From contig JACQQD010000005.1 in the NCBI GenBank assembly GCA_016207165.1, forward strand, positions 98,736-162,735: a stretch of DNA of 64,000 nt, given 5' to 3'. Below the pieces are notes generated by a model that was not told where the DNA came from, did not search any database, and saw only the letters and a list, made by a program, of their open reading frames with translations. The DNA comes from Candidatus Micrarchaeota archaeon (GTDB lineage: Archaea; Micrarchaeota; Micrarchaeia; Norongarragalinales; Norongarragalinaceae). Shown one piece after another: positions 3,138 to 41,335 of this stretch. The position numbers were made by a program, and so were the translations under genes. The first letter of the stretch is position 1. Each line of letters opens with the position of its first letter.

Positions 3138-3391
3138 CCATGGCACTGATTTCCAAGAAGAAGCTCAAGGACATGACGGTGGACGACTTGAAGGCGGAGC
3201 TTTTGAAGGTCCGCTCCGAGTACCGCGTCGAATCCGGGTCGCGCGCGACCACGGGCAAACCCAACAACCCCGGACGCTACAAACAATTGCGGCGCCTCAA
3301 CGCGCGGCTGTTGACCCTGTTGAGGCAAAAAGGCGTAAAAATTGGAACCGAAGGCCGAACGGCGTCGACGGAGCGCTCAGAAGCTATTTAA
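3134..3391 (+). CDS. rpl29: 50S ribosomal protein uL29 (L29)
   Basis: 85 aa, ...MTVDDLKAELLKVRSEYR...; ATGA overlap with S3. Confidence 0.9.
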   Translation: MTMALISKKKLKDMTVDDLKAELLKVRSEYRVESGSRATTGKPNNPGRYKQLRRLNARLLTLLRQKGVKIGTEGRTASTERSEAI

Positions 3392-3445
3392 ACCGAAGGC
3401 GGTAGAATGTACTTCCGCGAAAACGAGGATTGAATTCAAAAACAA

Positions 3446-7939: not shown

Positions 7940-8439
7940 CGAAAGCAACCGGACCCCTGTTCCAAGTGCATTTCCGCCGCCGCCGCGAGGGCCGCACCGA
8001 CTACCAAAAAAGGCTCGCGCTTTTGAAAAGCGGCAAGCCCAGGTTGGTGGTGCGCAAGACGAACCGTTACGTCATCGTCCAGCTCGTCACGTTTTCGCCG
8101 CAAGGCGACCGCGTCATCGCGTCCGCCACGTCCAAGGACCTCAACGCATTTAACTTCACCGGGAAATGCAACACGCCGTCGGCGTACCTGACCGGACTCT
8201 TGGTTGGAACCCGCGCCAAGGCCAAGGGCGTCAAGGACTTCGTGCTGGACATCGGCCTTCACGCCCCCACGCAGGGAAGCCTGGTTTTCGCCGGCCTCAA
8301 GGGCGCCGTGGACGCCGGCCTGACGGCGCCGCACTCCAACGAGCGCTTCCCGGATGAAGCACGCATGAACGGCGAACACATTCAACTCAAGGAAGCCGTT
8401 TTAAGCGCGAAGCAAAAGATTCTAGGCGGTGCAACATGA
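7936..8439 (+). CDS. rpl18: 50S ribosomal protein uL18 (L18); ATG 7936 (ATGA overlap with rpl19e) preferred over upstream ATG 7927
   Basis: MTKATGPLFQVHFRRRREGRTDYQKRLALLKSGKPRLVVRKTNRYVIVQLV... Confidence 0.9.
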   Translation: MTKATGPLFQVHFRRRREGRTDYQKRLALLKSGKPRLVVRKTNRYVIVQLVTFSPQGDRVIASATSKDLNAFNFTGKCNTPSAYLTGLLVGTRAKAKGVKDFVLDIGLHAPTQGSLVFAGLKGAVDAGLTAPHSNERFPDEARMNGEHIQLKEAVLSAKQKILGGAT

Positions 8440-9104
8440 AATTCCGCGGCCGATTCGGCAAAGAACAACGAAAAAAAGACGACAAGCACTTGGAGTCCTG
8501 GGTGCCCAAAACCAGCCTCGGAAAGAGCGTGCGCGCCGGCGAAATCAATTCGTATGACGCGCTCTTGGCCACACAAAAACCCATTCTCGAACCGGAAATC
8601 ATCGATGTCCTGCTTCCCGACCTCATCGAGGACGTCCTGGAAATCCGCAGCACCCAACGCATGACGTCCTACGGCCGCAAACAACAAATGCGTGCCGTGG
8701 TCCTCGTCGGCAACAAGAAAGGAGTGTTGGGCGTCGGCATCGGCAAAGCCGCGGAAGTGCGCGACGCGATTGCCGAAGGCGTCAAGGACGCCAAAAAACA
8801 CTTGATTTGCGTGCCGTTTGGCTCCGGGTCCTGGGAAGACATTGCCGGACTTCAAAATTCGCTGCCCACGCAAGTCATTGGCAAAAGCGGCTCGACGACC
8901 ATCGTCATCAAGCCCGCGCCCCGCGGCGTGGGACTGGTGGCCGGAAAAGTCTCCAAGCAAGTCCTGGAGTTGGCCGGACTCAAGGACGCGTGGACGTTCA
9001 CCAAGGGCCGCACCCGAAACGTGTTGAACGTCGTGTTGGCGACCATGGACGCCCTGGATACGCTCAACCACCAAAAGAAAGGCGTGAAAGTCTCGGCATC
9101 CTGA
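8436..9104 (+). CDS. rps5: 30S ribosomal protein uS5 (S5)
   Basis: 222 aa, ...VVLVGNKKGVLGVGIGKAAEVRDAI... Confidence 0.93.
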   Translation: MKFRGRFGKEQRKKDDKHLESWVPKTSLGKSVRAGEINSYDALLATQKPILEPEIIDVLLPDLIEDVLEIRSTQRMTSYGRKQQMRAVVLVGNKKGVLGVGIGKAAEVRDAIAEGVKDAKKHLICVPFGSGSWEDIAGLQNSLPTQVIGKSGSTTIVIKPAPRGVGLVAGKVSKQVLELAGLKDAWTFTKGRTRNVLNVVLATMDALDTLNHQKKGVKVSAS

Positions 9105-13093: not shown

Positions 13094-13136
13094 GACGGAA
13101 ACTTGATTAATTCGTCCCGCTCTTTTACGGTGTGCC

Positions 13137-14135
13137 ATGAGCATCGCCCCGTTTGAACACCGTCGATTTCGCATCAACGGAATCAACGAAGAACGCTATC
13201 CCACGATCAAACGTGATTTAAACGGCATCATTTCCACGCCGGGCCGCGTCCGCACCGAGTTGGAAGAAAAGCTCACCAGCGAATACGTTTATCCCGCCAT
13301 TTTCAAGCCCATCCCTCACCCTCCAGACCTGGTAGGTTACCCGCGTCACGGCACAGACCGGCCCTTCCGAGCCATGCATTTTGCGGCGCTGGCCGATTTC
13401 ATGCGAGCGCTTCAACGAGAGCCTCCCACCGGAAAACTTGAAAAACCCGGGTCCTGGCTTTCCGGATTCCGCCAACAAGTCCTCGCCATGGTCGAGGAAT
13501 TGGCGGCGCTTTCCATGGATTTCCGCATCCGCCGGACGCCTCATGCCACCCTGGGCGCGTCGCTTGTTCAATCCCGCAACCTGGCCGAGACCGCCCACCA
13601 CAACCACGTGGCCCACGCCAACGTATGGGGCCGGTTGTGCCAAGGCATCACCCGTGTGACGCTTCGAGATGGGGAAGCCCAGCGCGAATCCATCGGCATC
13701 CACGCCTCGCAGATCGGATTGGTTCCCCTTACCGTGAGTCAAATCGCCCAGCACTACCTTGGCTTTGCCCTTCCCAAGACTCGTCTTTCCCGCGGTAACC
13801 GCGACGCGCGTTTCATTCCCGACGCGACTTCCTTTTCGTTCGGCAGGCAAGACGTCGCCCACTGGACGGGTTCTCACTTGTCTGCCGTGGAACTGGGGCA
13901 AAACAAGGAGAAGTTCGAGAAACTGGATGCCGACTTGAACGCCCACGTGGCGGCGCTGAAAGCTGCCGCTTCATTTGACTTGGGTGACCGCGTCCACCTC
14001 CATTACGGCTTGTACCTGGCCCAACAACTCACCGATGAAAAAAAGCGTGCGGAGTGTCTCCAAAGGCAAGTCCGTCGCGTACTTACCGTACTTTCCGAAA
14101 AATTGCCGGAGTCATATCGCAATCCCCGAAAGTAA
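13137..14135 (+). CDS. hypothetical protein (332 aa, no recognisable domain) inserted between rpl14e and cbf5
   Basis: long ORF with period-3 GC3 bias; no motif I can assign; an antisense ORF 13218..13946 also exists. Confidence 0.55.
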   Translation: MSIAPFEHRRFRINGINEERYPTIKRDLNGIISTPGRVRTELEEKLTSEYVYPAIFKPIPHPPDLVGYPRHGTDRPFRAMHFAALADFMRALQREPPTGKLEKPGSWLSGFRQQVLAMVEELAALSMDFRIRRTPHATLGASLVQSRNLAETAHHNHVAHANVWGRLCQGITRVTLRDGEAQRESIGIHASQIGLVPLTVSQIAQHYLGFALPKTRLSRGNRDARFIPDATSFSFGRQDVAHWTGSHLSAVELGQNKEKFEKLDADLNAHVAALKAAASFDLGDRVHLHYGLYLAQQLTDEKKRAECLQRQVRRVLTVLSEKLPESYRNPRK

Positions 14136-14185
14136 CCCGACGAAATAGTCGGGGTTTGCTATAACTGACGTAATTCTCTGTAAAT

Positions 14186-15214
14186 TTGGTTAAGCGTGAT
14201 GTCCGCCATTTTTTCCACGACTCGATTCTTCTTGGCCTTCATTTAAATCCTCGGAAGAAAATAATTCAACTCCGCGATGATTATATGATTACCCTTCACT
14301 CGGAAGAATCCACCTGGGGAAAGACCATGGATGAGAAGACCGTCGACGAAATCCTCCCCTATTCTTTGGTGGTCATCGACAAGCCCTGCGGCCCCTCCTC
14401 GCATGAAGTCTCCGCCTACGTGAAAAAGATTTTGGGCGTGACCAAGACCGGCCACTCCGGAACGCTTGATCCGGAAGTCTCCGGCGTCCTGCCGGTTTTG
14501 TTGGGCGAGGCGACGAAAGCCGCCGGTTTTTTGCTTCGCGAACGCAAGACGTACGTGGCCGTCATGAAACTCCGAGACCCGCAAACCGACGAACAGCTCG
14601 AAGACGCGTTCCAACGCTTCCGCGGCAAAATCTACCAGAAGCCCCCGAAAAAGTCGGCGGTCAAGCGGGAACTGCGCATCCGCGAGGTTTACTCGCTGAA
14701 ACTGCTTCAAAACGCCGGCCAATTCGTTGTTTTTGAATCCGAAGTCCAGGCTGGCACCTACATCCGAAAACTCTGCTACGATTTAGGCGAATACCTTGGG
14801 TGCGGAGGGTTGATGGCCGAACTCCGCCGCATCAATGCCGCCGGCTTTCCTGAAAACCAAGCCCACCCCCTCCAGCACTTGTCCGACGCCGTGTGGCTGT
14901 GGAAGGAGAAAGGCGACGACTCCGAAATCAAGAAAATCCTGGTGCCCATCGAAAACGCCATCCAACTCAAAAAAGTCGTGGTCTCCGATGGAGCCATCAA
15001 ACCCATTACTACCGGCGCCAACTTGGCCATTCCCGGCATTTTGTCTTTGGACGAAGGTATCCGGAAAGACGAACCCGTCCAAATTTTGTCCGGCAAAGGC
15101 GAACTGCTTTGCTTTGCCAAAGCCCTCAAGGACTCGGAAGAAATCCAATCCAAAAAGAAGGGCATCGCCTTTGACATCGAACGCGTGATTCGAGCGCACA
15201 ACGCGTACGGTTGA
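14186..15214 (+). CDS. cbf5: tRNA/rRNA pseudouridine synthase Cbf5 (TruB catalytic domain + PUA)
   Basis: ...LVVIDKPCGPSSHEVSAYVKKILGVTKTGHSGTLDPEVSGVLPVLL... (catalytic Asp motif GTLDP); N-terminus MVKRDVRH resembles Pyrococcus Cbf5 MARDEVRR; alternative starts 14285 and 14327. Confidence 0.88.
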   Translation: MVKRDVRHFFHDSILLGLHLNPRKKIIQLRDDYMITLHSEESTWGKTMDEKTVDEILPYSLVVIDKPCGPSSHEVSAYVKKILGVTKTGHSGTLDPEVSGVLPVLLGEATKAAGFLLRERKTYVAVMKLRDPQTDEQLEDAFQRFRGKIYQKPPKKSAVKRELRIREVYSLKLLQNAGQFVVFESEVQAGTYIRKLCYDLGEYLGCGGLMAELRRINAAGFPENQAHPLQHLSDAVWLWKEKGDDSEIKKILVPIENAIQLKKVVVSDGAIKPITTGANLAIPGILSLDEGIRKDEPVQILSGKGELLCFAKALKDSEEIQSKKKGIAFDIERVIRAHNAYG

Positions 15215-15273
15215 TTTTGAATCAACCGCGCGTTTTAATACCTCGGGCTCGACAACTGGTTTGAGGGTATGAA

Positions 15274-15492
15274 ATGGCTGAAATTACGCTCAACGACATG
15301 TACGCGGAACTAAAATGCCTGCACCAGGATGTGGAATACCTCAAGCGCCGCATGGACGAAAAAGAAGGAAAACCCGCCGACGATGAACCTCTTTCCGATT
15401 CGGAAGTCAAGCGCATGGAGGAGTTGATTGAGAAATCCATTAAGACCGGGCGCATCGTTTCCGAAGAAGAACTCTTTTCCTCCTTGAAGTGA
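15274..15492 (+). CDS. putative antitoxin (small acidic coiled-coil protein) of a type II TA pair
   Basis: 72 aa, 7-nt gap to downstream RelE/ParE-like ORF; possible RHH-like N-terminus MAEITLNDMYAELK. Confidence 0.5.
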   Translation: MAEITLNDMYAELKCLHQDVEYLKRRMDEKEGKPADDEPLSDSEVKRMEELIEKSIKTGRIVSEEELFSSLK

Positions 15493-15498
15493 ACTCCC

Positions 15499-15861
15499 GT
15501 GGAGTATTCGCTTTTCTCCACGGCCTTCTTCAAAACCCAGTTTGACTCTTTGCCCATCGACGAACGCCGGAAAATCCGCGACCGGCTTTTGCTGGCTAAA
15601 GCCAACCCGTTCCGCAACAAGGCCATCCACTCCAACCGCTTCAAGCGCTTGTTCCGAATCCGCTTGGACGTCCAAGGCGTTTCCATACGCTTGGTTTACG
15701 CGGTACTGGGCTCGAAAATCGTTGTGGCCGGCTTCATCCCCCGGGACAACGATTACCGGGATTTGGACTCGCTTCTCTCCAAAATGCAGCGGGAACTTGA
15801 AACCCAGACTGAGGCTGGCTTTTCTTTGGAGCCACCCGATTCAAAGCACGAAAAGGCCTAG
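15499..15861 (+). CDS. RelE/ParE-superfamily toxin (mRNA interferase-like)
   Basis: 120 aa; FFKTQFDSLPIDERRKIRDRLLLAKANPF...RFKRLFRIRLDVQGVSIRLVYAVLGSKIVVAGFIPRDNDY matches the RelE/ParE pattern (L..NP...k.l.g.l.g.yRiRvgdyRiiY). Confidence 0.7.
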   Translation: MEYSLFSTAFFKTQFDSLPIDERRKIRDRLLLAKANPFRNKAIHSNRFKRLFRIRLDVQGVSIRLVYAVLGSKIVVAGFIPRDNDYRDLDSLLSKMQRELETQTEAGFSLEPPDSKHEKA

Positions 15862-15882
15862 TACGCCCCCCGCGTAAAAGCG

Positions 15883-15889
15883 TTTAAAT
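15883..15889 (+). promoter_or_regulatory. TATA box (tttaaat) with purine-rich BRE-like aaaagcg upstream, ~24 nt before the ATG of the murein-hydrolase gene (leaderless)
   Basis: consensus archaeal TATA at canonical spacing. Confidence 0.45.
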
Positions 15890-15912
15890 CCCGATTCCGC
15901 CTCTTTTTGTTC

Positions 15913-18900
15913 ATGCGTGCCGTCTTTTCCCTTTCCATACTCGTCCTGCTTGTTTCGGCTTTCTCTATTTCCGCGGCAGGCAACTTGCTTGTCTTAAACA
16001 AGCAAGCCATTGCTTTTCAGCCTCCCTCGGATTGCTCGGGCAACCTGGCGTTGGAAGCCAGCATGGCCTGCGCCGCCAAAAACTCGGTTTTGGCGTCAGA
16101 CGGCCTGCGCTTGGATGTCCACGTGGGCTCCGATTTCGTCCAAAAATTGTCGGGCGCCAACACGCGTCTGACGTGGTTCACCGGCGAGGGCCCGGTAATC
16201 TCGGATGCCCTCTCGTTTCCTTTGACCGGCGAAGGCTTCAGCGTCATTCATTTCGACGGCCGCCAGCTTCACGTCTACGCGAGTACCTCGGACACGGAAG
16301 CCGCTGCGGCGCTCGGCCAATATCTTTTTGATGAACGGAAGAATTTGGCGTTCAACAAGGATTGCCGCCTCTCCGTTTCCAGTAACGGCGACGCCATTGC
16401 CTTCAAGAAGTGCGTGCCGACCAACCTGCCTACCAAATCCTCTTTTCAAACTCAGTCATTGGGCTCCCAAGCGTACGATGACTTTTTCGTCTACGATGCC
16501 GCGCAAGGCGGCGTTTCAGCGGGAGCTTTGCCGGAGTTGGGTGACTGTAGCAAGGTTGCGTTCTCCAAATGGCCCACGCCTTCCAAGGAAGTCATCGACA
16601 AGTTCAACGTGGCCGGACTTGGAGGTTACGATTCCGGTCATCGCACGCACAAGGGCATCGACATTTCCATTGCGGAGAACGACCCCGTCTACTCCGTTCT
16701 GCCCGGAAAAATCCTCGACATTTACTCGGCGTGTCCGGCTTACTCAACCCCCGCCGACTACGGTTGCGGCGGCGGCTTCGGAAACTTGGTGAAAGTCGTC
16801 CACGGAACGTGTACCTACGACGGACAGAAAAGCTACTTCATGACGCAATACAACCATTTGGCCAAGGCGGCCGACGGCCTCAAGATTGGAGACGGCGTTG
16901 CCGCTGGCCAGAAAATCGCGTTGGGCGGCAGCTCGGGAAGGTCCACAGGCCCCCACTTGCATTTCGGGGCCGCGTTAATCGACTCGCTGAAAACCGGTCA
17001 ATCCACGGATTCGGACTCCAACGTCGTGTTGAACCCATCGCCGGCCTTAACCGTGGCCTCGTTGCCTGCAGGCTCCGTTCCCGGCCCCGTTCAAGCGCGC
17101 CCGCAATCCATTTTGGATTTTGCGGAAGAAGGTAAAATCAAGACTTCAGTCAAAAACGGCGAAACCGGGATCCTAGCCATCACGCCTTCCGTCAACGGCC
17201 AATGCAGTCAACCGCCCCAAACACCCTATCTACTTGGGCAAGCCCAGGAACTTTCGTCCCCCATTTGCGTCTATTACCAGCTTAGCGCGGAGCACGCGGC
17301 GGCCGTGCAAGACATCGCCTTTGCCGGTTATAGCGAACGTTCCGGCAGTTACTTTACCGTCCGATCCGCCATTCCAAAGGACTCCTCCATCCAGTACCCG
17401 GAAGACTATGAATCGCAAGTCAACATCGGGAAACCACTTTCCGCTTCGGGCCAGCCATCCGCCGGTGTCGCCGTCGCCGCACTGCCTGTGCTTAAACCCG
17501 GTGACTCGTATCCGGGAGGCCTGCACTTGAACATGTATTTGCGCACGGAATTAATTTCTCCTTCAACGGAAGTCAGTGCGAATGCCAAGGCCCCGGGAAT
17601 TTCCCGCGTGAAAGTCGGTGAAATCAACGTCGGCCTCCTGAAAAGCAATTACATCAAGAACGTTCCAGGCTCGCTTCAAGGCAAGACCTTCGTCATCGAT
17701 CCCGGCCATGGCGGGCCGGACGGGTTGGGTTCCTACGTGGGCGCCGACGAGAAAACCACGCCCCGCCACGAACGCACCATCACGCTGGCTGTTTCCAAAG
17801 AACTCCGAGAGCTTCTCTCTGGCGCCGGCGCCAAGGTGGTCATGACGCGCGAAACCGACGTGGACGTCGATTTGTCAGACCGGGCGGACCTGGCGGACAG
17901 CCAGAACGCGGATGCGTTCGTCAGCGTCCACGTCAACTGCGACCGGGAAAAAGCGATTCGAGAAACGCAGGGAATCACCCAGTTTGCCGGCATCAAGAAA
18001 ACCGATCCTGAACTTTGCTCTGCGGGCGTGATCTATCCCAAAGTGGGAGGCGCGCAAGAGAAAAACAGCATTGGGTTGGCGCAAGCCATTGCCAAGTCCA
18101 TGTCCCTGGATTCCCTTCCGTCGTTTGGCGTGTACTTTGACGGCCCCGGTTCGACGTTCGTGGGCACGTATTACGCCGGAAAAATCTACAAGCCCACGCC
18201 GTTAGGCGTCCTTCGCGGCACTACCAAGACGGCGGTGCTGGTGGAAATGGGGCCCATCGACGACGATCGGCTGGATGACTCCAATTACCAGCAGCAATTG
18301 GCGCAACAGATTTACGGTGGGATTCTTCAGAAGTTTGGTACAAGTTCCACGCCGACTTCGGGTGCTTTCAATGTCCAATTGCATGCATGCACACAGGGGC
18401 AGGTCAACAACGGGGATTATTCGCTGACTTTTGAAGAACTTGACCCACTGATTACCGAAGCCTCCCAAAAGTATGGCGTTGAAAAGGCGCTCATCAAGGC
18501 CATCATTTCCCAGGAAAGCGGCCGCCGCCCCTGTGTCATTTCCTTTTACAAGGACTGCTGTTTTGGCTTGATGCAATTGAATCGGCTCAACGGCGATGAA
18601 ACCGGCTATAGTTTGGCGACCAGCACCGCCGGCGTCTTGCAACAGCAAACCGGGTTTGCTTGTTTTGATAAGCCCCTGGATCCCCGCAACAACATCATGT
18701 GTGGCGCCAAGCACTTGGCGGATTTGGTGCGTTTTTATGGCAACAAGTATCCTGGTCAGGACTCCATTAAAATCGTGGCCGCGGCCTACAACGCCGGCGG
18801 CGGAAACGTGGAAAAGTACGGCGGCGTGCCCCCGTTTGGCGAAACGCAAAACTACGTCGTTGAAGTCCGCAAGTTTTACGACCAGTACCGCACGGCGTAA
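15913..18900 (+). CDS. secreted multidomain peptidoglycan hydrolase: signal peptide + M23/LytM endopeptidase + Amidase_3 (MurNAc-L-Ala amidase) + C-terminal SLT lytic transglycosylase
   Basis: signal MRAVFSLSILVLLVSAFS; M23 motifs HKGIDIS...D...YNHL...GSSGRSTGPHLHFG; Amidase_3 KTFVIDPGHGGPDG...ADAFVSVHVNC; SLT ...LIKAIISQESGRRP...FGLMQLN...AAAYNAGGGNV; track ORF starts at TTG 15907, ATG 15913 preferred. Confidence 0.8.
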   Translation: MRAVFSLSILVLLVSAFSISAAGNLLVLNKQAIAFQPPSDCSGNLALEASMACAAKNSVLASDGLRLDVHVGSDFVQKLSGANTRLTWFTGEGPVISDALSFPLTGEGFSVIHFDGRQLHVYASTSDTEAAAALGQYLFDERKNLAFNKDCRLSVSSNGDAIAFKKCVPTNLPTKSSFQTQSLGSQAYDDFFVYDAAQGGVSAGALPELGDCSKVAFSKWPTPSKEVIDKFNVAGLGGYDSGHRTHKGIDISIAENDPVYSVLPGKILDIYSACPAYSTPADYGCGGGFGNLVKVVHGTCTYDGQKSYFMTQYNHLAKAADGLKIGDGVAAGQKIALGGSSGRSTGPHLHFGAALIDSLKTGQSTDSDSNVVLNPSPALTVASLPAGSVPGPVQARPQSILDFAEEGKIKTSVKNGETGILAITPSVNGQCSQPPQTPYLLGQAQELSSPICVYYQLSAEHAAAVQDIAFAGYSERSGSYFTVRSAIPKDSSIQYPEDYESQVNIGKPLSASGQPSAGVAVAALPVLKPGDSYPGGLHLNMYLRTELISPSTEVSANAKAPGISRVKVGEINVGLLKSNYIKNVPGSLQGKTFVIDPGHGGPDGLGSYVGADEKTTPRHERTITLAVSKELRELLSGAGAKVVMTRETDVDVDLSDRADLADSQNADAFVSVHVNCDREKAIRETQGITQFAGIKKTDPELCSAGVIYPKVGGAQEKNSIGLAQAIAKSMSLDSLPSFGVYFDGPGSTFVGTYYAGKIYKPTPLGVLRGTTKTAVLVEMGPIDDDRLDDSNYQQQLAQQIYGGILQKFGTSSTPTSGAFNVQLHACTQGQVNNGDYSLTFEELDPLITEASQKYGVEKALIKAIISQESGRRPCVISFYKDCCFGLMQLNRLNGDETGYSLATSTAGVLQQQTGFACFDKPLDPRNNIMCGAKHLADLVRFYGNKYPGQDSIKIVAAAYNAGGGNVEKYGGVPPFGETQNYVVEVRKFYDQYRTA

Positions 18901-23512: not shown

Positions 23513-23599
23513 CCCGCCCCCGGGGGTTTCAAGGACTTTCTTTTTCATGTCCAGCCCAGGGCTCGTTAAACGGCAAAGCCAGCAAGTAAAACGATGAAG

Positions 23600-23725
23600 T
23601 GGGGGATCTGCGATTCGAACGCAGGACACCAGCTCTTCTGCCTTAGCCCATGGGTTGACGTCAAACGACAACCACTTCGCTTAAGGTCCCAAAGCTGGTA
23701 GGATGCCAGGCTACCCCAATCCCCC
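23600..23725 (-). tRNA. intron-containing tRNA, anticodon UGG (Pro) preferred, UUG (Gln) possible; ~53-nt intron at 37/38
   Basis: minus strand GGGGGAU...acceptor 7 bp + A73; D-arm GGGU-AGCCUGGC-AUCC; anticodon stem with loop containing UUUGGG; T-arm CUGCG-UUCGAAU-CGCAG. Confidence 0.6.
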
Positions 23726-25348: not shown

Positions 25349-25497
25349 CCCGCTGTAGCTCAACCTGGCAGAGCACCTGACTGTAGGACTGCGGACCGTT
25401 TTTGTAGGTACGTTTTCCGGTTACAGCCTGCTCTGTCTTTAGAGACAGATTCCTGAAAGAAATCAGGGTGTTGCCAGTTCAAATCTGGCCAGCGGGA
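25349..25497 (+). tRNA. tRNA-Tyr(GUA) precursor with ~75-nt canonical 37/38 intron (25387-25461)
   Basis: acceptor CCCGCTG/CAGCGGG + A73; D-arm GCTC-AACCTGGCA-GAGC; anticodon stem CCTGA/TCAGG with loop CUGUAG|intron; variable GTGTT; T-arm GCCAG-TTCAAAT-CTGGC. Confidence 0.75.
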
Positions 25498-25507
25498 CTT
25501 TCTCTTT

Positions 25508-28544: not shown

Positions 28545-29651
28545 TCACGCCGTGACGCGCAGGGCTTGATTCAGCGTCTGGTCCACCAACCCGTCGGGAA
28601 GCCGTTCTTCCAGTTTCTCCAAGTGCCGCGCGTCGGTGCGCGTGGCCGGATGCCGGCTGACCAGGCTCTGGCAACAATCCAGATACGGCTGGCGCGACAA
28701 ATCGTATGTACCGATTTTTTCCGCGATGCCGATGATTTCCTTTTTGTCGTACGTCAACAACGGCCGAAGCATGGGTAATTTCACGGCATCCTGTATTGAC
28801 CCTAAGTTTGACAACGTCTGCGACGAGACTTGGGCGAGGTTTTCGCCGGTGGCAATGCCTTCCGCGTTTTCTTGGACCGCAATTTGTTGGGCCACGCGTG
28901 CCATGAACCGCCGGAAAACGGGGAGAGCGAATCGTTCCGGAACATCCAAGGCCGCCAAGGTGAACTCGTTGTACGGCACCAGGTAAACGGTGTTGGCCAG
29001 CGTCCACGGCTTGAGCTGGCGGGCGAGGTTGAGGATTTTGAGCGACTTTTCCTCCACGTTTTCACGGTGCGGGTGGAAGTGCACGTACACGTTCTTGATG
29101 CCGCGCTTGGCCATGAGCCACGCGGCCACCGGCGAGTCAAACCCACCGCTTAAAAGTGTGACCACCTTTCCGGAGACGCCCACCGGCAAACCCCCGAGTC
29201 CCGCGTGCTTTCCGCCGTACGCTACCGCCTTGTCTCTGAGCACGTCGACGTGTACCACGGCTTTGGGGTTTTTCACAGCCAACGCCACGCCCCGTTTTTC
29301 CAGGCGGCGCGTGAGTTGGCGCACGATTTCCGGGGACTGAAATTCAAACGACTTGTCGGAGCGGTTTACTTCCACTTTGACGGGGCCGCCCGCGCTTTCG
29401 GCCAGGCGCGCCACGGCGTCTTCCATGCCGGACAAACTCCGCTTTGCGTCGAGGCACTCGGCAAACCATGACACGCCAAAGACTTTCTCGATTTTCGGTA
29501 ACGCGGACGCGTCGGCATCCAGAAAGAACCGGTGTTCGACGAGTTTGGCTTTGACGTCCGTGGCGTTCTCCAGGTTGCGCTGCAGCTGCCGCTGGAACAC
29601 GGGCCTGTTTCGGCCCTTGGTGAACAGTTCTCCGTAGTGGACGACGATCAT
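28545..29651 (-). CDS. thiI: tRNA 4-thiouridine synthase ThiI (THUMP + PP-loop ATP pyrophosphatase)
   Basis: 368 aa; PP-loop ...VVTLLSGGFDSPVAAWLM...; N-terminal THUMP region. Confidence 0.85.
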   Translation of the reverse strand: MIVVHYGELFTKGRNRPVFQRQLQRNLENATDVKAKLVEHRFFLDADASALPKIEKVFGVSWFAECLDAKRSLSGMEDAVARLAESAGGPVKVEVNRSDKSFEFQSPEIVRQLTRRLEKRGVALAVKNPKAVVHVDVLRDKAVAYGGKHAGLGGLPVGVSGKVVTLLSGGFDSPVAAWLMAKRGIKNVYVHFHPHRENVEEKSLKILNLARQLKPWTLANTVYLVPYNEFTLAALDVPERFALPVFRRFMARVAQQIAVQENAEGIATGENLAQVSSQTLSNLGSIQDAVKLPMLRPLLTYDKKEIIGIAEKIGTYDLSRQPYLDCCQSLVSRHPATRTDARHLEKLEERLPDGLVDQTLNQALRVTA

Positions 29652-29743
29652 TTCTTCTCACCGGGTGTGAGGCGGACTAAGCGCCAGGGGGCGGAGCCCC
29701 CGGGGCTTAGGTGCAACAGTTCTCCGTAGTGGACAACGATCAT
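29623..29743. repeat. short hairpin insertion (29652-29714) flanked by a 29-bp direct duplication of the thiI start region (aacagttctccgtagtggacRacgatcat at 29623-29651 and 29715-29743)
   Basis: direct inspection; the inserted core gaggcggacTaagcgccagggggcggagcccccggggctt shares its ends with a second element at 39399-39476. Confidence 0.6.
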
Positions 29744-34878: not shown

Positions 34879-34987
34879 TTTTTGGGCGCCACGCATCCCT
34901 CGTGGGCACTTCGTCGTCCGTCGGCTGGGTCTTGGTTTTTATTCCTTTTCGTGGTCAAGCACTCTCTGGAGTTGGATGTTCGTGGGC

Positions 34988-36922
34988 ATGAACTTGACGC
35001 ACAAAATCATTTCCGAGCACCTCGTCGACGGCCAAATGGTGGTGGGCGAGGAAATCGGCATCAAAGTGGACCAGACCCTCACCCAGGATGCCACGGGCAC
35101 CATGTCGTTTTTGCAGTTTGAAGCTCTGGGCCTGCCCCGCGTCCAAACCGAAGTGGCCGTTTCCTACGTCGACCACAACATGCTTCAGACGAGTTTCGAG
35201 AACGCCGACGACCACCGGTACTTGCAAAGCGTGGCCCAAAAGTACGGCGTGTACTTTTCACGCCCCGGAAACGGCATCTGCCACCAAGTGCACTTGGAGC
35301 GCTTTTCCGTTCCTGGCAAATTCATGCTGGGTTCCGACTCGCATACCCCCACGTGCGGCGGCATGGGGATGCTTGCCATTGGGGCCGGCGGCTTGGATGT
35401 CGCTGTAGCCATGGGCGGCGGACCGTTTTACACCAAAATGCCGAAAGTCCTGGGCATCCAGTTGAAAGGCAAGCTCCAACGCCACGTGGCCGCCAAAGAC
35501 ATCATCCTGGAGGTACTCCGACGGCTGACTGTCAAGGGAGGCGTGGGGAAAGTCATCGAGTACTACGGCGAAGGCGTCAAGTCGCTGGACGTGTACCAGC
35601 GCTCCACCATCACCAACATGGGCGCGGAACTGGGTTCCACCACTTCGATTTTTCCGACGGACGAAAAAACGCGGGAGTTCCTCAAGCGCCAAGGTCGTGA
35701 AGACGCCTACCAGGAAGTTGGCCCCGACGCCGATGCGACGTACGATGAGCATCTTGAAATCGACTTGAACACCTTGGAGCCCCTTATCGCCAAGCCGCAA
35801 AGCCCGGACAACGTTGTTCCGGTTCGGGAAGTAGAAGGCTTGGCCGTCCAGCAGGTGCTCGTCGGCTCCTGCACGAATTCCTCTTTGAAGGACCTCATGA
35901 CTGTAGCGACGTATTTGAAGGGCAAGAAAGTGCATTCCGACGTCTCCATGGCCCTCTCACCGGGCTCCAAACAGGTCTTCCAGGAAATCGCGCGCAACGG
36001 CGCTTTGGCGGATTTCATCAACGCCGGCGTCCGCGTTCTGGAAAGCGCGTGCGGTCCCTGCATCGGCATGGGACAAGCTCCTGGAAGTGACATGGTTTCC
36101 CTGCGAACATTCAACCGCAACTTCGCCGGACGCTCCGGCACCAAGAACGACAAAGTGTACTTGTGTTCGCCGGAGGTCGCCGTCGCGTCAGCCATCACCG
36201 GCAAAGTCACGGACCCCCGAAGCCTTCCGGACCTCGCCATCCACGTGCCCACCGAGATTGTGATTGACGACTCCATGATTCTGGCGCCGTCGGACGACCC
36301 CGACTCCGTGGAAGTCTTGCGCGGCCCCAACATCAAGCCCGTGCCCCTCAAGGAGCCCGTAACCAATGCGTTGGATGGCGTGGTGCTCATCAAGACGGGC
36401 GACAACGTCACCACGGACCACATCATGCCTGCCGGCGCCAAAATCCTTCCCTTGCGCTCCAACGTGCCCGCGATTTCCGAATTCGTGTTCTGCAACGTGG
36501 ACGCCGATTTCGTCAAACGCGCCAAGGAAAACCACGGCGGTTTCATCGTCGGCGGCGAAAACTACGGACAGGGGTCCTCCCGCGAGCACGCGGCCCTGGC
36601 GCCGATGTACTTGGGTGTCAAGGCCGTGTTCGCCAAGAACTTCGCCCGCATCCACAAGGACAATTTGGTGAACTTCGGCATCGTTCCCCTTGAAATTGAC
36701 GGGAGCACGTACGACGACCTCCAGCAAGGGCACGTGTTGTCCATGGAGGGCGTGCGCGAGGCCCTAGAGTTGGGGTCCACCAGCGTGGAATTGGCCAACT
36801 CGTCAAGCAAGAAGAAATACGCCGCGAAACTCAACTTGACGCCGCGCCAGCGCCACATCATCCTGGCGGGCGGCACACTGAACTGGACGCGGGCAAACGC
36901 GCCCCAAGCCAGCCTGGCGTGA
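34988..36922 (+). CDS. acn: aconitate hydratase (aconitase family; Fe-S ligand motifs ...GSCTNSS... and ...ACGPCIGMGQ...)
   Basis: ~645 aa; ...SDSHTPTCGGMGMLAIGAGGLD...; swivel domain ...GENYGQGSSREHAA... Confidence 0.75.
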   Translation: MNLTHKIISEHLVDGQMVVGEEIGIKVDQTLTQDATGTMSFLQFEALGLPRVQTEVAVSYVDHNMLQTSFENADDHRYLQSVAQKYGVYFSRPGNGICHQVHLERFSVPGKFMLGSDSHTPTCGGMGMLAIGAGGLDVAVAMGGGPFYTKMPKVLGIQLKGKLQRHVAAKDIILEVLRRLTVKGGVGKVIEYYGEGVKSLDVYQRSTITNMGAELGSTTSIFPTDEKTREFLKRQGREDAYQEVGPDADATYDEHLEIDLNTLEPLIAKPQSPDNVVPVREVEGLAVQQVLVGSCTNSSLKDLMTVATYLKGKKVHSDVSMALSPGSKQVFQEIARNGALADFINAGVRVLESACGPCIGMGQAPGSDMVSLRTFNRNFAGRSGTKNDKVYLCSPEVAVASAITGKVTDPRSLPDLAIHVPTEIVIDDSMILAPSDDPDSVEVLRGPNIKPVPLKEPVTNALDGVVLIKTGDNVTTDHIMPAGAKILPLRSNVPAISEFVFCNVDADFVKRAKENHGGFIVGGENYGQGSSREHAALAPMYLGVKAVFAKNFARIHKDNLVNFGIVPLEIDGSTYDDLQQGHVLSMEGVREALELGSTSVELANSSSKKKYAAKLNLTPRQRHIILAGGTLNWTRANAPQASLA

Positions 36923-36976: not shown

Positions 36977-38179
36977 ATGGCTGAAAAAATAACGGTGAAC
37001 AACGGCATTCTGAACGTTCCGGACCACCCCATCATTCCCCTCATTGAGGGCGACGGCGTGGGCGTGGACATTACGCCGGTCATGACGACCGTCGTTGACG
37101 CGGCCGTGGCCAAGGCTTCCGGCGGCAAGAAGAAAATTGAATGGAAGCCGATTCTGGCCGGCGAGAAAGCCATTGCCAAGACCAATGAACTGTTGCCCCA
37201 GGAAAGCATTGACGCCATCCAGGAGTACGTCGTCTCCATCAAGGGTCCCCTGACCACGCCGGTTGGCGGCGGGTTCCGGAGCCTGAACGTAACGCTTCGC
37301 CAGGTGCTGGACTTGTACGCGTGCGTGCGGCCCGTCAAGTGGTATCCCGGCATTCCCAACCCCATGAAGCAACCGGAGAAGTTGAACGTCAAAATCTTCC
37401 GCGAGAACACGGAAGACGTGTACGCTGGCATCGAGTGGGATGCCGGCAGTGCCGAAGCCAACAAGCTCATTGAATTTGTCGCCTCCATGGGAAAGAAAAT
37501 CCGGCCCAACTCGGCGGTGGGCATCAAACCCATCTCGGAATTCGGCTCCAAGCGCATCGTTCGCGCGGCCATTCACAACGCCATGAAGTACGGCTTGAGC
37601 AAGGTCACTTTGGTGCACAAGGGCAACATCATGAAGTTCACCGAAGGCGGATTCCGGAAGTGGGGCTACGAGGCCGCCAAGGAGTTTTCCAACACGGTTA
37701 CGGAAGAGGAAGTCGCCAAAGGCGCGTCCGCGGAAGGAAAAATCATCGTCAACGACCGCATTGCTGACTCCATGTTCCAACAACTTTTGCTCCGCCCCGA
37801 TGAATACCAGGTGTTGGCGACCATGAACCTCAACGGCGACTACTTGTCGGACGCCGCCGCGGCGCAAACCGGGGGCCTGGGCATCGCGCCGGGCGCCAAC
37901 ATCAACTACCAGACCGGCGTCGCGTTGTTTGAAGCCACGCACGGAACCGCTCCGAAGTACGCGGGCCAGGACAAAGTCAACCCCGGTTCGCTGTTGTTGT
38001 CCGCCGTCATGATGCTGCGCTACATGGACTGGAAAACAGCCGCCGACTTGGTGGAAAACGCGTTCCAGAAAACCATCGACCAGAAAATCGTTACCTACGA
38101 TCTTTCCCGGCAGATGGAAGGCGCCCAAGAAGTTCGGTGCTCGGAATTCGGGGACGCCATCATCCGGAACATGGATTGA
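36977..38179 (+). CDS. icd: NADP-dependent isocitrate dehydrogenase (prokaryotic homodimeric type)
   Basis: 400 aa; ...[15 protein letters not shown]...[18 protein letters not shown]... Confidence 0.85.
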
Positions 38180-38183
38180 TCGT

Positions 38184-39398
38184 ATGGCTCAACGCGCAAT
38201 CCGTGAAATCGACGCCAAAAACATTTTGGTCCACGCCGGCGTGGCGAAATGGCACGGCGTCTTGGTGGACGGGCAAACGGACTGGAAGACGCTTTCCAAA
38301 GACCACCCGTGGCTGTTGAAGGAAAAGCTGGTGGTCAAGCCCGACCAATGCTTTGGCCAACGAGGCAAGCACGGCTTGGTTTTGTTGAACGCCGATTTGA
38401 AGGGCGTCGAGCAATTCGTGCGGAAAAACATGAACCGGGTCGTTGAATTAAACGGCGTGAAAGGCCCCTTGACGCACTTCTTGATCGAGCCGTTTGTCCC
38501 GCATCAAGCCGAGTACTACGCCGCCATCCAGACCGAGAAAGACCACGACGTGGTTTTTTTCTCCTTGAAAGGCGGCGTGGACGTGGAGGAAAACTGGGAC
38601 CGCATCCAACCATTCAAAGTCGGAGTCCTTGACGACTTGGATTCGGTGTCCTTTGGCTTGCCCAAGATGCCGGAGCGCGACGCGGTCCACGCGTTTCTCA
38701 AGAAACTCTACCGCGTCTTTGCCGAGAACGACTTTTCGTTTTTGGAGTTGAACCCTTTTTGCATGGTGGACGGAAAGCCGGTGCTGCTGGATGCCGTGGC
38801 GCGGCTGGACGACACGGCGGCCTTCAAAGGCAAGTGGAACGTCGAGTTCCCGGCGCCTTTTGGCCGGACGTTGTCCAAGGAGGAAGCCTACATCAAGTCG
38901 TTGGACGAGAAAACCGGTGCGTCATTGAAGCTGACCGTCTTGAACCCGAAGGGAAAAATCTGGACGCTGGTCGCCGGCGGCGGAGCGTCCGTGGTGTACG
39001 CCGACACCATCGTCGACTTGGGCTTCCAAAAAGAGCTGGCCAACTACGGAGAGTATTCCGGCAATCCCAACGACGAAGAAACCTACCTTTACACCAAAAC
39101 CGTGCTGGAATTGTTGGTCAAAGGAAACGGGCAGATTCTTTTGATTGGCGGCGGCATCGCCAACTTCACCGACGTGGCCAAGACCTTCAAAGGCATCATC
39201 CAGGCGCTGAGCGAATTTGCGCCGGCGCTCAAGAAAAAAGGCGTGAAAATATACGTTCGCCGCGGGGGTCCCAACTACCAGCAAGGCTTGGAACACATGC
39301 GGCAACTGGGCGAGAAAACGGGTTTGTCCATCCAAGTCTTTGGCCCGGAAACGCATATGACGAAGATCGTTCCCATGGCGCTTGAGGAGCTGAAATGA
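38184..39398 (+). CDS. aclB: ATP-citrate lyase small subunit AclB-like (ATP-grasp, succinyl-CoA synthetase beta-like)
   Basis: 404 aa; ...EIDAKNIL...VVKPDQCFGQRGKHGLV...; CoA-ligase fold; immediately upstream of aclA-like gene. Confidence 0.75.
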   Translation: MAQRAIREIDAKNILVHAGVAKWHGVLVDGQTDWKTLSKDHPWLLKEKLVVKPDQCFGQRGKHGLVLLNADLKGVEQFVRKNMNRVVELNGVKGPLTHFLIEPFVPHQAEYYAAIQTEKDHDVVFFSLKGGVDVEENWDRIQPFKVGVLDDLDSVSFGLPKMPERDAVHAFLKKLYRVFAENDFSFLELNPFCMVDGKPVLLDAVARLDDTAAFKGKWNVEFPAPFGRTLSKEEAYIKSLDEKTGASLKLTVLNPKGKIWTLVAGGGASVVYADTIVDLGFQKELANYGEYSGNPNDEETYLYTKTVLELLVKGNGQILLIGGGIANFTDVAKTFKGIIQALSEFAPALKKKGVKIYVRRGGPNYQQGLEHMRQLGEKTGLSIQVFGPETHMTKIVPMALEELK

Positions 39399-39521
39399 AT
39401 GCGTTTACATGAGTTTAGGGAAAGGGGCGAGGCGGAGCAAGCGCCAGGGGAAAACCGTAGGTTTGCCCCGGGGCTTGCATGCACGAAGATCGTTCCCATG
39501 GCGCTTGAGGAGCTGAAGTGA
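39352..39521. repeat. second copy of the hairpin insertion (39399-39476) flanked by a ~40-45-bp direct duplication of the aclB 3' end/aclA start region (gcatRtgacgaagatcgttcccatggcgcttgaggagctgaaRtga)
   Basis: direct inspection: 39352-39397 and 39475-39521 nearly identical; core ...gaggcggagCaagcgccagggg-aaaaccgtaggtttg-ccccggggcttgcatgc. Confidence 0.6.
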
Positions 39522-41335
39522 AAAAGTTTATGACTCTTTTCGACGAAAACACGCAGGCCATCATCTTCGGCATGCAAGCCCAAGTCGTCCAACGCATGCT
39601 GGATTTCGACTTCATGTGCGGCCGGAAAACCCCGTCGGTGGCCGCCGTGGTCAACCCTTCGGACACTCGGATGCTGGCCGTCTTTTTCGGTTCCAAGCAA
39701 GTCTTGGTTCCTGTGTACGCGTCCACGAAAGAAGCCTTTCAAAAACATCCCGTTGCCTCGGTGTTCATCAACTTTGCTTCGTTCCGCTCCGCGTTTGACA
39801 CCACGTGGGATGCCTTGGATTTGCCGCAAGTTTTGTCCGTGGCCGTGATTGCCGAAGGCATGCCTGAGCGCGACACCCGGAGGCTTGCGGCGAAAGCCAA
39901 AAAACTTTCCAAGCCCTTCATCGGCCCGGCCACCGTCGGCGGCCTGACGGCGGGTTGCTTCAAGATTGGCAACACCGGCGGTGCCGTGGACGCCATGATC
40001 GACGCGAAACTCTACCGCTCCGGCTCCGTGGGATTCGTTTCCAAGTCCGGCGGCATGTCCAACGAATTGTTCAACCTGCTTTCCCACCACACCGACGGCG
40101 TCTGCGAAGGCATCGCCATCGGCGGCGACCGCTTCCCCGGCACCACGCTTTACGACCACGTGCAACGGTTCGAGAAGGATCCCAAAATCAAGCTCATCGT
40201 CGTCTTGGGTGAATTGGGGGGAACCGACGAGTACGACATCGCCGACGCGGTGGCGAAAAAGAAGATCAAAAAGCCGGTGGTGGCCTGGGTCACCGGCACC
40301 TGCGCGGCGCTTTTTGCCACCGAAGTCCAATTCGGCCATGCGGGCGCCAAGAGCGGTTCCAAGAAGGAAAGTGCGCAAGAAAAAAACGAGGCCCTAAAAA
40401 AAGCGGGGGTCTTCGTTCCGAAAAGCTACGACGACTTCGGTGAACTCATCCAAAAAGTATTCGAGAAGCACGTGGGAAAAATTCCCGCGGAAACGCAAAA
40501 CCCCCCCGTCATTCCGGAAGACTTTTCCGTGGCGGTAAAGAAAAACCGAGTCCGCCGGCCCGCCTCCATCGTGTCCAGCATCTCGGATGACCGCGGCGAA
40601 GACGTGCTGTACCACGGCGAGACCCTGACTTCCCTTCTGGAAAGAAAAGCCAGCCTGGGGGACGTCATCGCTTTGTTGTGGTTCAAAAAGAAGCTTCCCG
40701 CCTGGGCCACTGAGTTTATGGAAATGACGCTCAAAATCACGGCCGACCACGGGCCCGCTGTTTCCGGGGCGCACAACGCCATCGTCGCCTCGCGCGCCGG
40801 CAAGGACTTGGTTTCGTGCCTGGCTTCGGGTTTGTTGACCATCGGCCCCCGTTTTGGAGGCGCCATTGACGATGCGGCCCGCTACTGGCAAGCGGCCGTC
40901 TCTCAAGGACAGGCGCCCAAGGCGTTCGTGGATGAAATGAAAGCCAAGAACGTCTTGATTCCCGGCATTGGCCACCGCGTCAAATCCATCCAAAACCCCG
41001 ACGCCCGCGTGGCCGCGCTCAAGGCCTACGCCCAAAAGCATTTCCCGTCCACCCAGCACCTGCAATTCGCCTTGGACGTCGAGAAACTGACCACCCAGAA
41101 GAAAGGCAACCTGATTCTCAACGTGGACGGCTGCATTGCCGCCTTGTTTCTGGACCTTTTCGATTCCTGCCCCGAGTTTTCCGGCGAGGAAAAAAGACAG
41201 CTGGTGGACATTGGGGTCCTGAATGCCTTTTTTGCTTTGGGGCGAAGCATTGGCATGATTGGGCACGCCATCGACCAAAAACGCCTGCAACAGCCCTTGT
41301 ACCGGCACGACTGGGACGACGTGCTGTACCTCTAA
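39518..41335 (+). CDS. aclA: ATP-citrate lyase large subunit AclA-like (succinyl-CoA synthetase alpha-like CoA-binding + citrate-synthase-like domain)
   Basis: 605 aa; ...SKSGGMSNELFNLLS...VQFGHAGAK... (phospho-His loop); C-terminal ...IPGIGHRVKS... citrate synthase-like; start GTG 39518 or ATG 39530. Confidence 0.8.
   Translation: MKKFMTLFDENTQAIIFGMQAQVVQRMLDFDFMCGRKTPSVAAVVNPSDTRMLAVFFGSKQVLVPVYASTKEAFQKHPVASVFINFASFRSAFDTTWDALDLPQVLSVAVIAEGMPERDTRRLAAKAKKLSKPFIGPATVGGLTAGCFKIGNTGGAVDAMIDAKLYRSGSVGFVSKSGGMSNELFNLLSHHTDGVCEGIAIGGDRFPGTTLYDHVQRFEKDPKIKLIVVLGELGGTDEYDIADAVAKKKIKKPVVAWVTGTCAALFATEVQFGHAGAKSGSKKESAQEKNEALKKAGVFVPKSYDDFGELIQKVFEKHVGKIPAETQNPPVIPEDFSVAVKKNRVRRPASIVSSISDDRGEDVLYHGETLTSLLERKASLGDVIALLWFKKKLPAWATEFMEMTLKITADHGPAVSGAHNAIVASRAGKDLVSCLASGLLTIGPRFGGAIDDAARYWQAAVSQGQAPKAFVDEMKAKNVLIPGIGHRVKSIQNPDARVAALKAYAQKHFPSTQHLQFALDVEKLTTQKKGNLILNVDGCIAALFLDLFDSCPEFSGEEKRQLVDIGVLNAFFALGRSIGMIGHAIDQKRLQQPLYRHDWDDVLYL

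Follow-up and report, generated by a model that had tools for sequence, protein, structure and literature searches.

A small hairpin element of Micrarchaeia inserted with long target duplications at the acl and thiI gene boundaries

The acl and thiI loci and their inserts

In a 64,000-nt stretch of DNA from a Candidatus Micrarchaeota archaeon (contig JACQQD010000005.1, positions 98,736 to 162,735; hereafter the window), the genes for the beta and alpha subunits of ATP-citrate lyase, aclB and aclA, follow those for aconitase and isocitrate dehydrogenase in one operon (Table 1; loci outside the window are cited by handles such as L001). The two acl genes are set apart by an 83-nt insert, a member of a conserved family of small hairpin elements that was inserted with duplication of its target, and the insert is bordered by a 40-nt direct repeat matching in 39/40 positions, the single mismatch being A39395 against G39518. 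An earlier sequence-only reading of this DNA had proposed a flank duplication of about 45 bp around an insert of 78 bp; the duplication is real and unusually long as claimed, its extension to a 5′ “gcat” shows only weak similarity between the copies, and the insert was measured too short. Because the duplication spans the last 37 nt of aclB together with the stop codon, the upstream copy completes aclB, and the native aclA leader is retained by the downstream copy.

Both acl genes are undamaged by the insertion, as is thiI, the tRNA 4-thiouridine synthase gene discussed below. AclB carries the Pfam domains Citrate_bind, Citrate_synth_N, and ATP-grasp_2, is 100% identical to a Candidatus Micrarchaeota protein, and ends in ...EELK*, which aligns with ...KELK* of a relative from sample ERR14788029 whose AclB and ThiI are each 86% identical to the window proteins (the 86% relative). 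AclA carries CoA_binding, Ligase_CoA, and Citrate_synt, an identical 601-aa product has been called in Logan contig L065, and its N-terminus MTLFDENTQA aligns with MTLFNQDTQA of the 86% relative and also with the product of L002. This alignment places the aclA start at the ATG of Table 1, which means that the ancestral genes were adjacent and not overlapping, with a spacer of about 8 nt in the window lineage and 5 nt in the 86% relative. The supposed coupling of the aclB stop to an overlapping GTG start of aclA was therefore a short spacer.

From 39398/39399 the acl element opens with the left-end motif (A)ATGCGTT; a head of about 30 nt comes next, and after it the core and hairpin in the order GGGGC-GAGGCGGA-GC-AAGCGCCAGGGG-loop-CCCCGGGGCTT-GC-ATGC. 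The hairpin loop is itself a small stem, AAACC-GTA-GGTTT, and the minimum free energy of the hairpin is -28.1 kcal/mol (z = -3.2). No T-run terminator site was found in 39200-39700, where the hairpin is followed by GCATGCACGAAG. As a separate observation, the duplicated aclB tail (39372-39383 and 39495-39506) holds CCCATGGCGCTT, which differs by one base from a perfect complement of the element 5′ arm, and the acl repeat contains CCCATGGCGCTTG, which is 12/13 of that complement (p about 0.05); judging from these matches, the 5′ arm could pair in RNA with either repeat copy.

A second copy lies at the start of thiI, flanked by a repeat of which 28/29 positions are identical, and shares the core of the acl copy over 29669-29710. 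GAGGCGGA (39429-39436 / 29669-29676), AAGCGCCAGGGG (39439-39450 / 29679-29690), and CCCCGGGGCTT (39466-39476 / 29698-29708) are exact at both sites, and the 12-mer AAGCGCCAGGGG occurs exactly twice in the 64 kb, at these two places. Likewise, a covariance model built from 13 copies of the family finds exactly two sites in the window, acl (39409-39482, 70.7 bits) and thiI (29649-29714, 67 bits), which are also the only two places in the window with high-identity local direct repeats; their Smith-Waterman flank scores of 38 and 27.5 exceed the highest value among shuffles, 13.5. The match of the acl insert to the thiI insert that had been noticed from the letters is thereby borne out. The two copies represent different compensatory subfamilies, each of which is present in other genomes too, and the element, which encodes nothing itself, is non-autonomous.

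Comparison with relatives gives the insertions a direction. In the 86% relative just 5 nt, and no element, separate the aclB stop from the aclA ATG (L001), and the thiI start is equally free of the element (L064); the acl junction of a 68% relative (L002) is also empty. Moreover, repeat copy 1 has a synonymous AAA where repeat copy 2 and the 86% relative have AAG, and the AAG TGA of copy 2, as in L001, is the ancestral state. It is from these two facts, the empty sites and the AAG kept by copy 2, that polarity follows, and the acl insertion arose, with a 40-bp target duplication, after the split from the 86% relative. Two independent insertions of one small palindromic element, as first suggested, are supported by both the empty sites and the dispersed family described below. 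A misassembly, the general risk with metagenome-assembled genomes and nothing more specific, can practically be dismissed: the independent Logan assembly of SRR12113385 (L063) matches the thiI structure base for base, the acl repeat copies differ by one base, and the same architecture is met in assemblies of unrelated projects. In the same vein, a Logan contig of SRR12113383 begins inside acl repeat copy 2, at a point at which a k-mer graph is expected to break if the 38-nt repeat is real.

Both insertions also created small reading frames. The 40-codon frame between the acl genes begins with an ATG immediately after the aclB stop (TGAATG) and terminates at the old aclB stop, 8 nt 5′ of aclA. 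At thiI, the old ATG opens an upstream frame of 31 codons whose TGA overlaps the new thiI ATG (ATGA), and a GGTGA 6 nt upstream of the new ATG is supplied by the element. The bridging frame and the ATGA-linked frame may keep translation coupled. The chance expectation of such frame agreement is roughly 1 in 10 each and the insert of L057 is out of frame, and for these reasons we treat coupling as the outcome of selection among survivors and not as a property of the element.

Table 1. Genes, repeats, and elements of the window, followed by related copies at other loci.
Feature	Position or locus	Strand	Remarks
Aconitase gene	34976-36922		acl operon
Isocitrate dehydrogenase gene	36977-38179		acl operon
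aclB, ATP-citrate lyase beta subunit	38184-39398	+	intact; TGA at 39396-39398
acl repeat copy 1	39360-39399	+	functional aclB 3′ end; identity extends 1 nt beyond the stop
40-codon reading frame made by the insertion	39399-39521	+	in frame across the element
acl element, 83 nt	39400-39482	+	no counterpart in relatives L001 and L002; 40-nt repeat; gene end
Conserved single-stranded motif GGGGC-GAGGCGGA	39424-39436	+	unpaired in all folds
Imperfect hairpin GC-AAGC-G-CC-A-GGGG / loop / CCCC-GG-GCTT-GC	39437-39478	+	from the fold
Right-end tail ATGC	39479-39482	+	GTGC in the thiI copy; GATGC in the L067 rpoB copy
acl repeat copy 2	39483-39522	+	orphan aclB tail, AAG TGA; continuous with aclA leader
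aclA, ATP-citrate lyase alpha subunit	39530-41335	+	intact; start ATG 39530
thiI, tRNA 4-thiouridine synthase	28545-29651	-	intact; Pfam ThiI, ThiI_fer, THUMP
thiI repeat copy 1	29623-29651	+	first 29 nt of functional thiI; ends exactly at the start codon (CAT)
thiI element, 63 nt	29652-29714	+	antisense to thiI; CT..AG stem-base subfamily; 29-nt repeat; gene start
thiI repeat copy 2	29715-29743	+	orphan old start; adjoins native TATA-like box
Flanked copy	L046/L057		~36-nt repeat; last codons and stop of a 135-aa ORF
Flanked copy	L059		35/35-nt repeat; intergenic
Flanked copy	L010		19-nt repeat; stop of ORF 2837-3646
Flanked copy	L067, 17893-18093		49/49-nt repeat; rpoB end
Sister element	L010, 2464-2624		after tRNA-Pro; 20-nt repeat of tRNA end, T-run included
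Sister element	L064, 13367-13470		after tRNA-Pro of the 86% relative; 17-nt repeat of tRNA end
Sister element	L010		gene start; 18-nt repeat
Sister element	L067, 3529-3649		aconitase start; 23-nt repeat
Sister element	L067, 5510-5702		aconitase stop; 34-nt repeat
Sister element	L066, 11213-11335		aclB/aclA junction; 82-nt insert in opposite orientation; 23-nt repeat, 2 mismatches
tRNA-associated copy	L010		inside canonical 37/38 intron of tRNA-Gly
tRNA-associated copy	L021		inside T-loop intron of tRNA-Lys
tRNA-associated copy	L052		inside T-loop intron of tRNA-Asp
tRNA-associated copy	L032		directly 3′ of tRNA-Glu, after discriminator base
tRNA-associated copy	L019		directly 3′ of tRNA-His, after discriminator base

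The element family, its targets, and its tRNA-associated copies

A scan of one genome per species for an exact pattern of the hairpin arms returned 24 loci, five of them on Micrarchaeia contigs (Anstonellales, Norongarragalinales, and two unclassified genomes), and the 5′ motif was present in all five although the pattern did not demand it. The element, at about 60 nt, is present in metagenome contigs and in a minimum of four further Micrarchaeia genomes, and a scan of metagenomes with a pattern that included the 5′ motif added five more distinct copies (L031, L032, L046, L052, and L059). About 24 of the 35 metagenome matches were set aside; they belong to an unrelated conserved coding sequence in which the 20 bases of the pattern occur but no hairpin forms. 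As a sequence family the element is spread across MICRARCHAEIA and common to Micrarchaeia orders.

The 13 distinct copies align with the invariant blocks GAGGCG.A, AGCGCCAGGGG, and CCC..G.GCTT, and GGGGC-GAGGCGGA is invariant or nearly so in all of them. The general layout consists of a T.ATTCG-like left end, a head of 13-38 nt, the invariant GGGGGC-GAGGCGGA, a 14-bp hairpin, and a short tail, with a total size of about 60-165 nt. In the consensus fold the hairpin bears two invariant one-base bulges (G and A), its base covaries between copies (CT..AG, AT..AT, GC..GC, and GT..AT; as RNA pairs, CG/AU/GC/GU and UA/CG), and the top of the stem covaries too. Indeed, pairing holds in 93.9% of cells over the 14 family pairs, and cells with a change on each side number 17 compared with 5.3 +/- 1.9 in shuffled alignments, a count reached in 0/500 shuffles; the fold energies of individual hairpins are -24 to -28 kcal/mol, and z lies between about -3 and -4. 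The covariance model gave 15 matches in the loci examined; scores were 57-80 bits, with one degenerate copy at 43.5. The acl copy and the copy at the rpoB end of L067 are identical at 71/83 positions including head and loop, in genomes whose AclB proteins share only 66%, and the element family is more conserved than the host genes.

Searches of catalogued sequence did not recover the element. Rfam, run with gathering and E-value thresholds on the window and related loci, gave tRNA and rRNA matches and otherwise microRNA-type noise only; two scans of viral contigs yielded nothing but one chance match within a GC-rich coding region; blastn against plasmid and phage records gave no element match; and a full-text literature search found no description of it. 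The sequence-only reading did not recognise the element type; it is a small non-autonomous insertion element of an uncatalogued Micrarchaeia type.

Long target duplications are a regular companion of the family. The six flanked copies recognised by the covariance model carry repeats of 29, 40, ~36, 35, 19, and 49 nt, and sister elements, recognised either by the common left-end motif T.ATTCG or by an apical hairpin, GGGGAAACCGTAGGTTGCCCC, are bordered by 17-34 nt repeats. Duplication length is therefore variable, within 17-49 nt, with one further case of 86 nt (L005). A single genome, represented by L010 plus L067, has six repeat-flanked inserts in 22 kb, three of which lie in 18 kb of L067. 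The sister insert of L066 is found in a genome whose AclB is 67% identical to that of the window, its repeat duplicates the aclA start and begins exactly at the ATG, and from this we conclude that the acl junction was struck independently in two lineages by related elements. A tRNA-Pro gene (23599-23725) in the window lacks the sister insert that follows tRNA-Pro in the 86% relative. At the aconitase start of L067 the called start has moved into the insert, and an ATGA overlap joins the upstream frame to the new start.

Of the repeats, 10/12 include or abut the start or stop codon of a gene or the 3′ end of a tRNA, and the left end of the element faces the outer boundary of the functional gene copy in 9/11 gene-associated cases. 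Several junctions fall 0-1 nt from a codon (the thiI ATG, the L066 aclA ATG, the L067 aconitase TGA, one base after the window aclB TGA, and one base before that of L067 rpoB). The junctions are ragged, with 4-17 nt of filler; the repeat of L010 opens with GGGCTTAC, which is the end of the element's own 3′ arm, and the loop of this copy contains a third, partial copy of the target. It had been proposed that the element aims at translation-initiation regions, which does not agree with flanked copies at stop codons (L057, and rpoB and aconitase in L067) or with others at tRNA 3′ ends, in intergenic DNA (L059), and inside tRNA introns. The common factor of the insertion sites is gene or transcript ends in general. 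A part of this bias may be survivorship, because a long duplication regenerates the gene end that it interrupts, and it would be such duplication that lets elements survive in a genome that is 91% coding, and then only at the ends of genes and tRNAs.

Five of the 13 distinct copies are associated with tRNA genes (Table 1), where they lie inside or next to the tRNA without long direct repeats. The intron of the L052 tRNA is essentially the element, and a relaxed helix-bulge-helix arises there from the T stem, a bulge of 3 nt, and a helix of 4 bp (UUCG/CGAA); at L021 a bulge-helix-bulge can be drawn with UCAAA/UUUGA; in both of these tRNAs it is T-loop sequence that pairs with the end of the intron; and exon-intron boundaries with a bulge-helix-bulge or relaxed motif are found for all three intron copies (L021, L052, and L010). 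In ARMAN-2, a relative within Micrarchaeia, the endonuclease is known to cut relaxed motifs and many introns lie in T-loops. The window itself holds a tRNA-Tyr (25349-25498) with a 75-nt intron and a tRNA-Pro with a 53-nt intron (ARAGORN, introns allowed), and the element is not within either of them.

Some further copies and neighbouring genes deserve mention. In L055 (288-1127) an aquaporin ORF has the element in frame, with a TATA-like box on one side and the MIP domain on the other. The element is there a hairpin in the 5′ leader or else an N-terminal extension that is translated; its frame reads ..PGG..PWRL.RL.., the same frame as that of the thiI upstream ORF. Intergenic L005 (5424-5664) has an 86-nt direct repeat around a 69-nt insert, with a degenerate antisense copy in each repeat, and in intergenic L006 (6455-6654) a TATA-like box is followed by a tandem pair of copies with a T-run at its end, an array that might be a transcribed small-RNA gene. 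In L067 a 237-aa ORF with no Pfam match (8157-8870) lies between aclB and aclA and, like the bridging frame of the window, opens with an ATG that adjoins the aclB stop (TGAATG), and the RNA polymerase B and A′ genes (13096-16140) have intein-splicing domains that the N-terminal part of the window rpoB lacks. The window also encodes ribosomal protein L32e and a split RNA polymerase B subunit besides its intron-bearing tRNA, and these features, with the 100% match of a protein to a Candidatus Micrarchaeota genome, assign it to a Micrarchaeia (DPANN) archaeon. It further holds a 745-aa ORF without Pfam match that includes a 102-nt tandem duplication (73% identical) at 49899-50102, and a 997-aa ORF (15907-18900) with Amidase_3, SLT, and Peptidase_M23, domains of cell-wall hydrolases of the bacterial type although the genome is archaeal; in the 86% relative an ORF with YkuD, SLT, and M23 lies at L064 18203-20214.

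Routes of insertion

We put the chances at about even that the element is copied in from another copy by template switching or target-primed synthesis, rather than moved by classical cut-and-paste, and we treat such copying as the leading model. The donor would be another copy of the element, as DNA or RNA; a growing strand would depart from the target, copy the element end to end, and return 17-50 nt behind its point of departure, re-copying this stretch as the duplication, and at acl the hairpin would from then on travel passively in the transcript. The template-switch scar offered by the sequence-only reading is still plausible as a mechanism. What speaks for copying is the set of unlike ends without terminal inverted repeats, the variable duplication, the filler, the copies of target and arm at L010, and the regularity of the boundaries. 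In the five flanked copies compared, the left end (ATGCGTTT / T.ATTCG) is not complementary to the right end of hairpin plus RTGC, and no transposase, integrase, or reverse transcriptase is found in 17 ORFs of the window and 8 ORFs near the L019 and L055 copies.

Several points weigh against such copying. The microhomology at junctions and the degenerate extensions of the repeats are not significant case by case, nor, taken with the loop-to-target matches, as a set, and template switching explains neither the repeated choice of this donor nor the position of junctions at codon boundaries. The lack of a mobilising enzyme means little, because only about 210 kb of Micrarchaeia DNA were surveyed. 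Furthermore, the unpaired bases that never vary (the bulged G and A, and GAGGCGGA) and the recognisable ends, T.ATTCG on the left and hairpin plus RTGC tail on the right, resemble features of protein recognition. They would fit an enzyme dedicated to the element, a transposase or integrase with its gene at another place in the genome, which would cut the two target strands 17-50 bp apart and leave gap repair to make the duplication; the element would then be an archaeal case of the IS1634/IS1549 or IS1202 kind. Precedents exist in the DDE enzyme of IS1634/IS1549, which yields variable repeats of 8-514 bp, and in IS1202 with target repeats of 27-28 bp; the IS1634 family is found preferentially among Euryarchaeota, and the conservation of the element beyond that of host genes agrees with such an enzyme. 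Terminal inverted repeats are missing, however, duplication length varies, junctions carry filler, orientation is biased relative to gene boundaries, and no candidate enzyme adjoins any copy examined, though the L066 site has an rve-family ORF at a distance of 8 kb. On balance we consider a dedicated enzyme a possible but doubtful source of these insertions. Broader still, and in our view unlikely, is the idea that copying defines a new class of archaeal mobile DNA, transposase-less, that is templated into transcript or gene ends and in tRNA genes gives rise to new bulge-helix-bulge introns; a reverse transcriptase or polymerase would jump from one nucleic-acid end to another, or the hairpin itself would provoke template switching during replication.

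Retroposition of the short interspersed element (SINE) kind, in which a small stable RNA, for instance from tRNA precursors, would be copied by a reverse transcriptase that jumps between RNA ends, with the chimeric cDNA then recombining into the chromosome by way of the short duplicated segment, is rather improbable. It draws on the thiI junction lying exactly at the ATG and 25 nt after TATAAA, consistent with a leaderless mRNA, on the L010 junction just after the T-run of tRNA-Pro, on defined element ends with duplications of variable length, on the five of 13 copies in or adjoining tRNA genes, and on two G-U pairs that are valid only on the GAGGCGGA strand. Yet no reverse transcriptase was seen among the ORFs scanned, the occurrence of both orientations would require RNAs of both strands with the same ends, and stop-codon junctions are not known RNA 3′ ends. 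Retroposition of the SINE or non-long-terminal-repeat (non-LTR) kind is not known from archaea.

Slightly less credible still is that the hairpin is kept as a useful cis-regulatory RNA of the host, such as a processing site, stabiliser, attenuator, or protein-binding site, a function that would be compatible with any origin. Strong conservation of sequence and structure, location inside transcription units, and the bridging or upstream frames with TGAATG or ATGA junctions at three sites would suit a regulator, whereas both orientations relative to transcription occur, the same junctions function in close relatives without the element, copies also lie in tRNA introns and trailers, and there is no T-run and only two copies in 64 kb.

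A Cas1-type integrase acting off target, from a CRISPR adaptation complex or a casposase, and duplicating as much target as one repeat is long, is very improbable. Casposons integrate at gene 3′ ends, of tRNAs as well as of proteins and in one instance of a tRNA-Pro, and four of the duplications (29-40 bp) are within the range of CRISPR repeat lengths; the insert is nonetheless one conserved element of about 60-165 nt in place of varied spacers, terminal inverted repeats are missing, the duplications span 17-49 bp where a ruler mechanism gives a single length, and no cas genes were seen in the ORFs scanned. Hardly worth entertaining is a bulge-helix-bulge intron in the acl mRNA, spliced to restore the ancestral message: the same element does lie inside genuine tRNA introns of other genomes and Micrarchaeia endonucleases accept relaxed motifs, but the acl flanks are direct repeats and not complementary, the fold shows no bulge-helix-bulge at the acl or thiI boundaries, and both genes are intact without splicing.

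Several other candidates were rejected. A loop that guides the element to a matching target, as in bridge RNA, fails as a general rule, the longest common substrings of each element and its own target giving p = 0.81, 0.05, 0.41, 0.97, and 0.02 against random windows. A constant duplication of about 35 bp reached by degenerate repeat extension is not borne out, the extensions being individually non-significant (p = 0.07-1.0). A series of 5′-truncated copies of the kind left by long interspersed elements was dropped because the shared left-end T.ATTCG shows that the differences in head length are internal. Fragments of C/D-box or H/ACA sRNA, SRP RNA, RNase P RNA, and 5S rRNA were discarded in view of negative Rfam searches and an inspection by eye that showed no boxes or motifs, and a diversity-generating retroelement, a CRISPR mini-array, and an attL/attR pair because the repeats differ from site to site around a constant insert.

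Implications and comparison with known systems

The family is an undescribed repeat in Micrarchaeia, whose genomes are small and gene-dense and in which mobile DNA has been little studied. Its long target duplication explains how an insertion into a gene end can take place without loss of the gene, and the same duplication rule predicts precise, reversible excision between the repeats. If junctions exactly on starts, stops, or a terminator are confirmed, they would point to an insertion process that senses transcript ends, and we know of no prokaryotic mechanism of this type. For annotation, the insertions bring spurious small ORFs, shifted start calls (aconitase and aquaporin in related loci), and contig breaks in k-mer assemblies.

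Among known systems, the miniature inverted-repeat transposable elements of bacteria and archaea, known as MITEs, resemble the element in being small, non-coding, dispersed, target-duplicating, and polymorphic for presence or absence between relatives, a comparison that had been suggested for these strains and that gave empty acl and thiI sites in the 86% relative. MITEs have fixed duplications of 2-10 bp, whereas the element has variable ones of 17-49 bp, unlike ends without terminal inverted repeats, and no known parent insertion sequence (IS). Long target repeats are shared with IS1634/IS1549, where their mechanism is without a model, and with IS1202; those are transposase-encoding elements of 1.5-2 kb with inverted repeats, in contrast to a hairpin of 60-165 nt with no linked transposase, and no DDE transposase with matching ends was found among the 25 ORFs scanned, 17 of which represent the source genome through its 64-kb window only. 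With the REP/REPIN and IS200/IS605 palindromes it has in common an imperfect GC-rich hairpin, unpaired bases, a 5′ single-stranded motif, and asymmetric ends, but these make no target duplication, are bacterial, mostly extragenic, and numerous in copies, and require a Y1 transposase, of which the ORFs scanned showed none; inspection of 11 left junctions for a fixed target tetranucleotide showed no shared target motif.

SINE and non-LTR retroposition shares the defined ends, variable duplications, tRNA association, and junction microhomology, and differs in that neither a reverse transcriptase nor a tail was seen with the element, nor any sign of an RNA intermediate. In a CRISPR mini-array the repeat is constant and the spacers vary, whereas here the repeats are local target sequence that differs per site, the “spacer” is conserved, and no cas gene was seen. 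A diversity-generating retroelement has repeats of about 100 nt differing at adenines and a nearby reverse transcriptase; here the repeats measure 29-40 nt and contain one transition, the ORFs scanned include no reverse transcriptase, and the targets are housekeeping genes. The MITE-like C/D-box sRNA element of Pyrobaculum calidifontis is likewise small, structured, and multiplied in its genome, and has conserved flanking inverted repeats and C/D boxes, neither of which the Micrarchaeia element has.

Transposed tRNA introns occur in Thermoproteales, and the tRNA-associated copies resemble these introns and the disrupted tRNAs of ARMAN-2, in which the same short sequence is likewise found at different tRNAs and positions (37/38 and T-loop). 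Were the class of copied-in elements real, it would provide a concrete source for the many non-canonical tRNA introns of Micrarchaeia, and as the same element is seen both as a fresh repeat-flanked insertion and as the body of tRNA introns (T-loop and 37/38), the gain of archaeal tRNA introns becomes directly testable. What distinguishes the element from those introns is that it also occupies protein-gene junctions with long direct repeats, a signature of insertion at the DNA level that has not been reported for tRNA introns.

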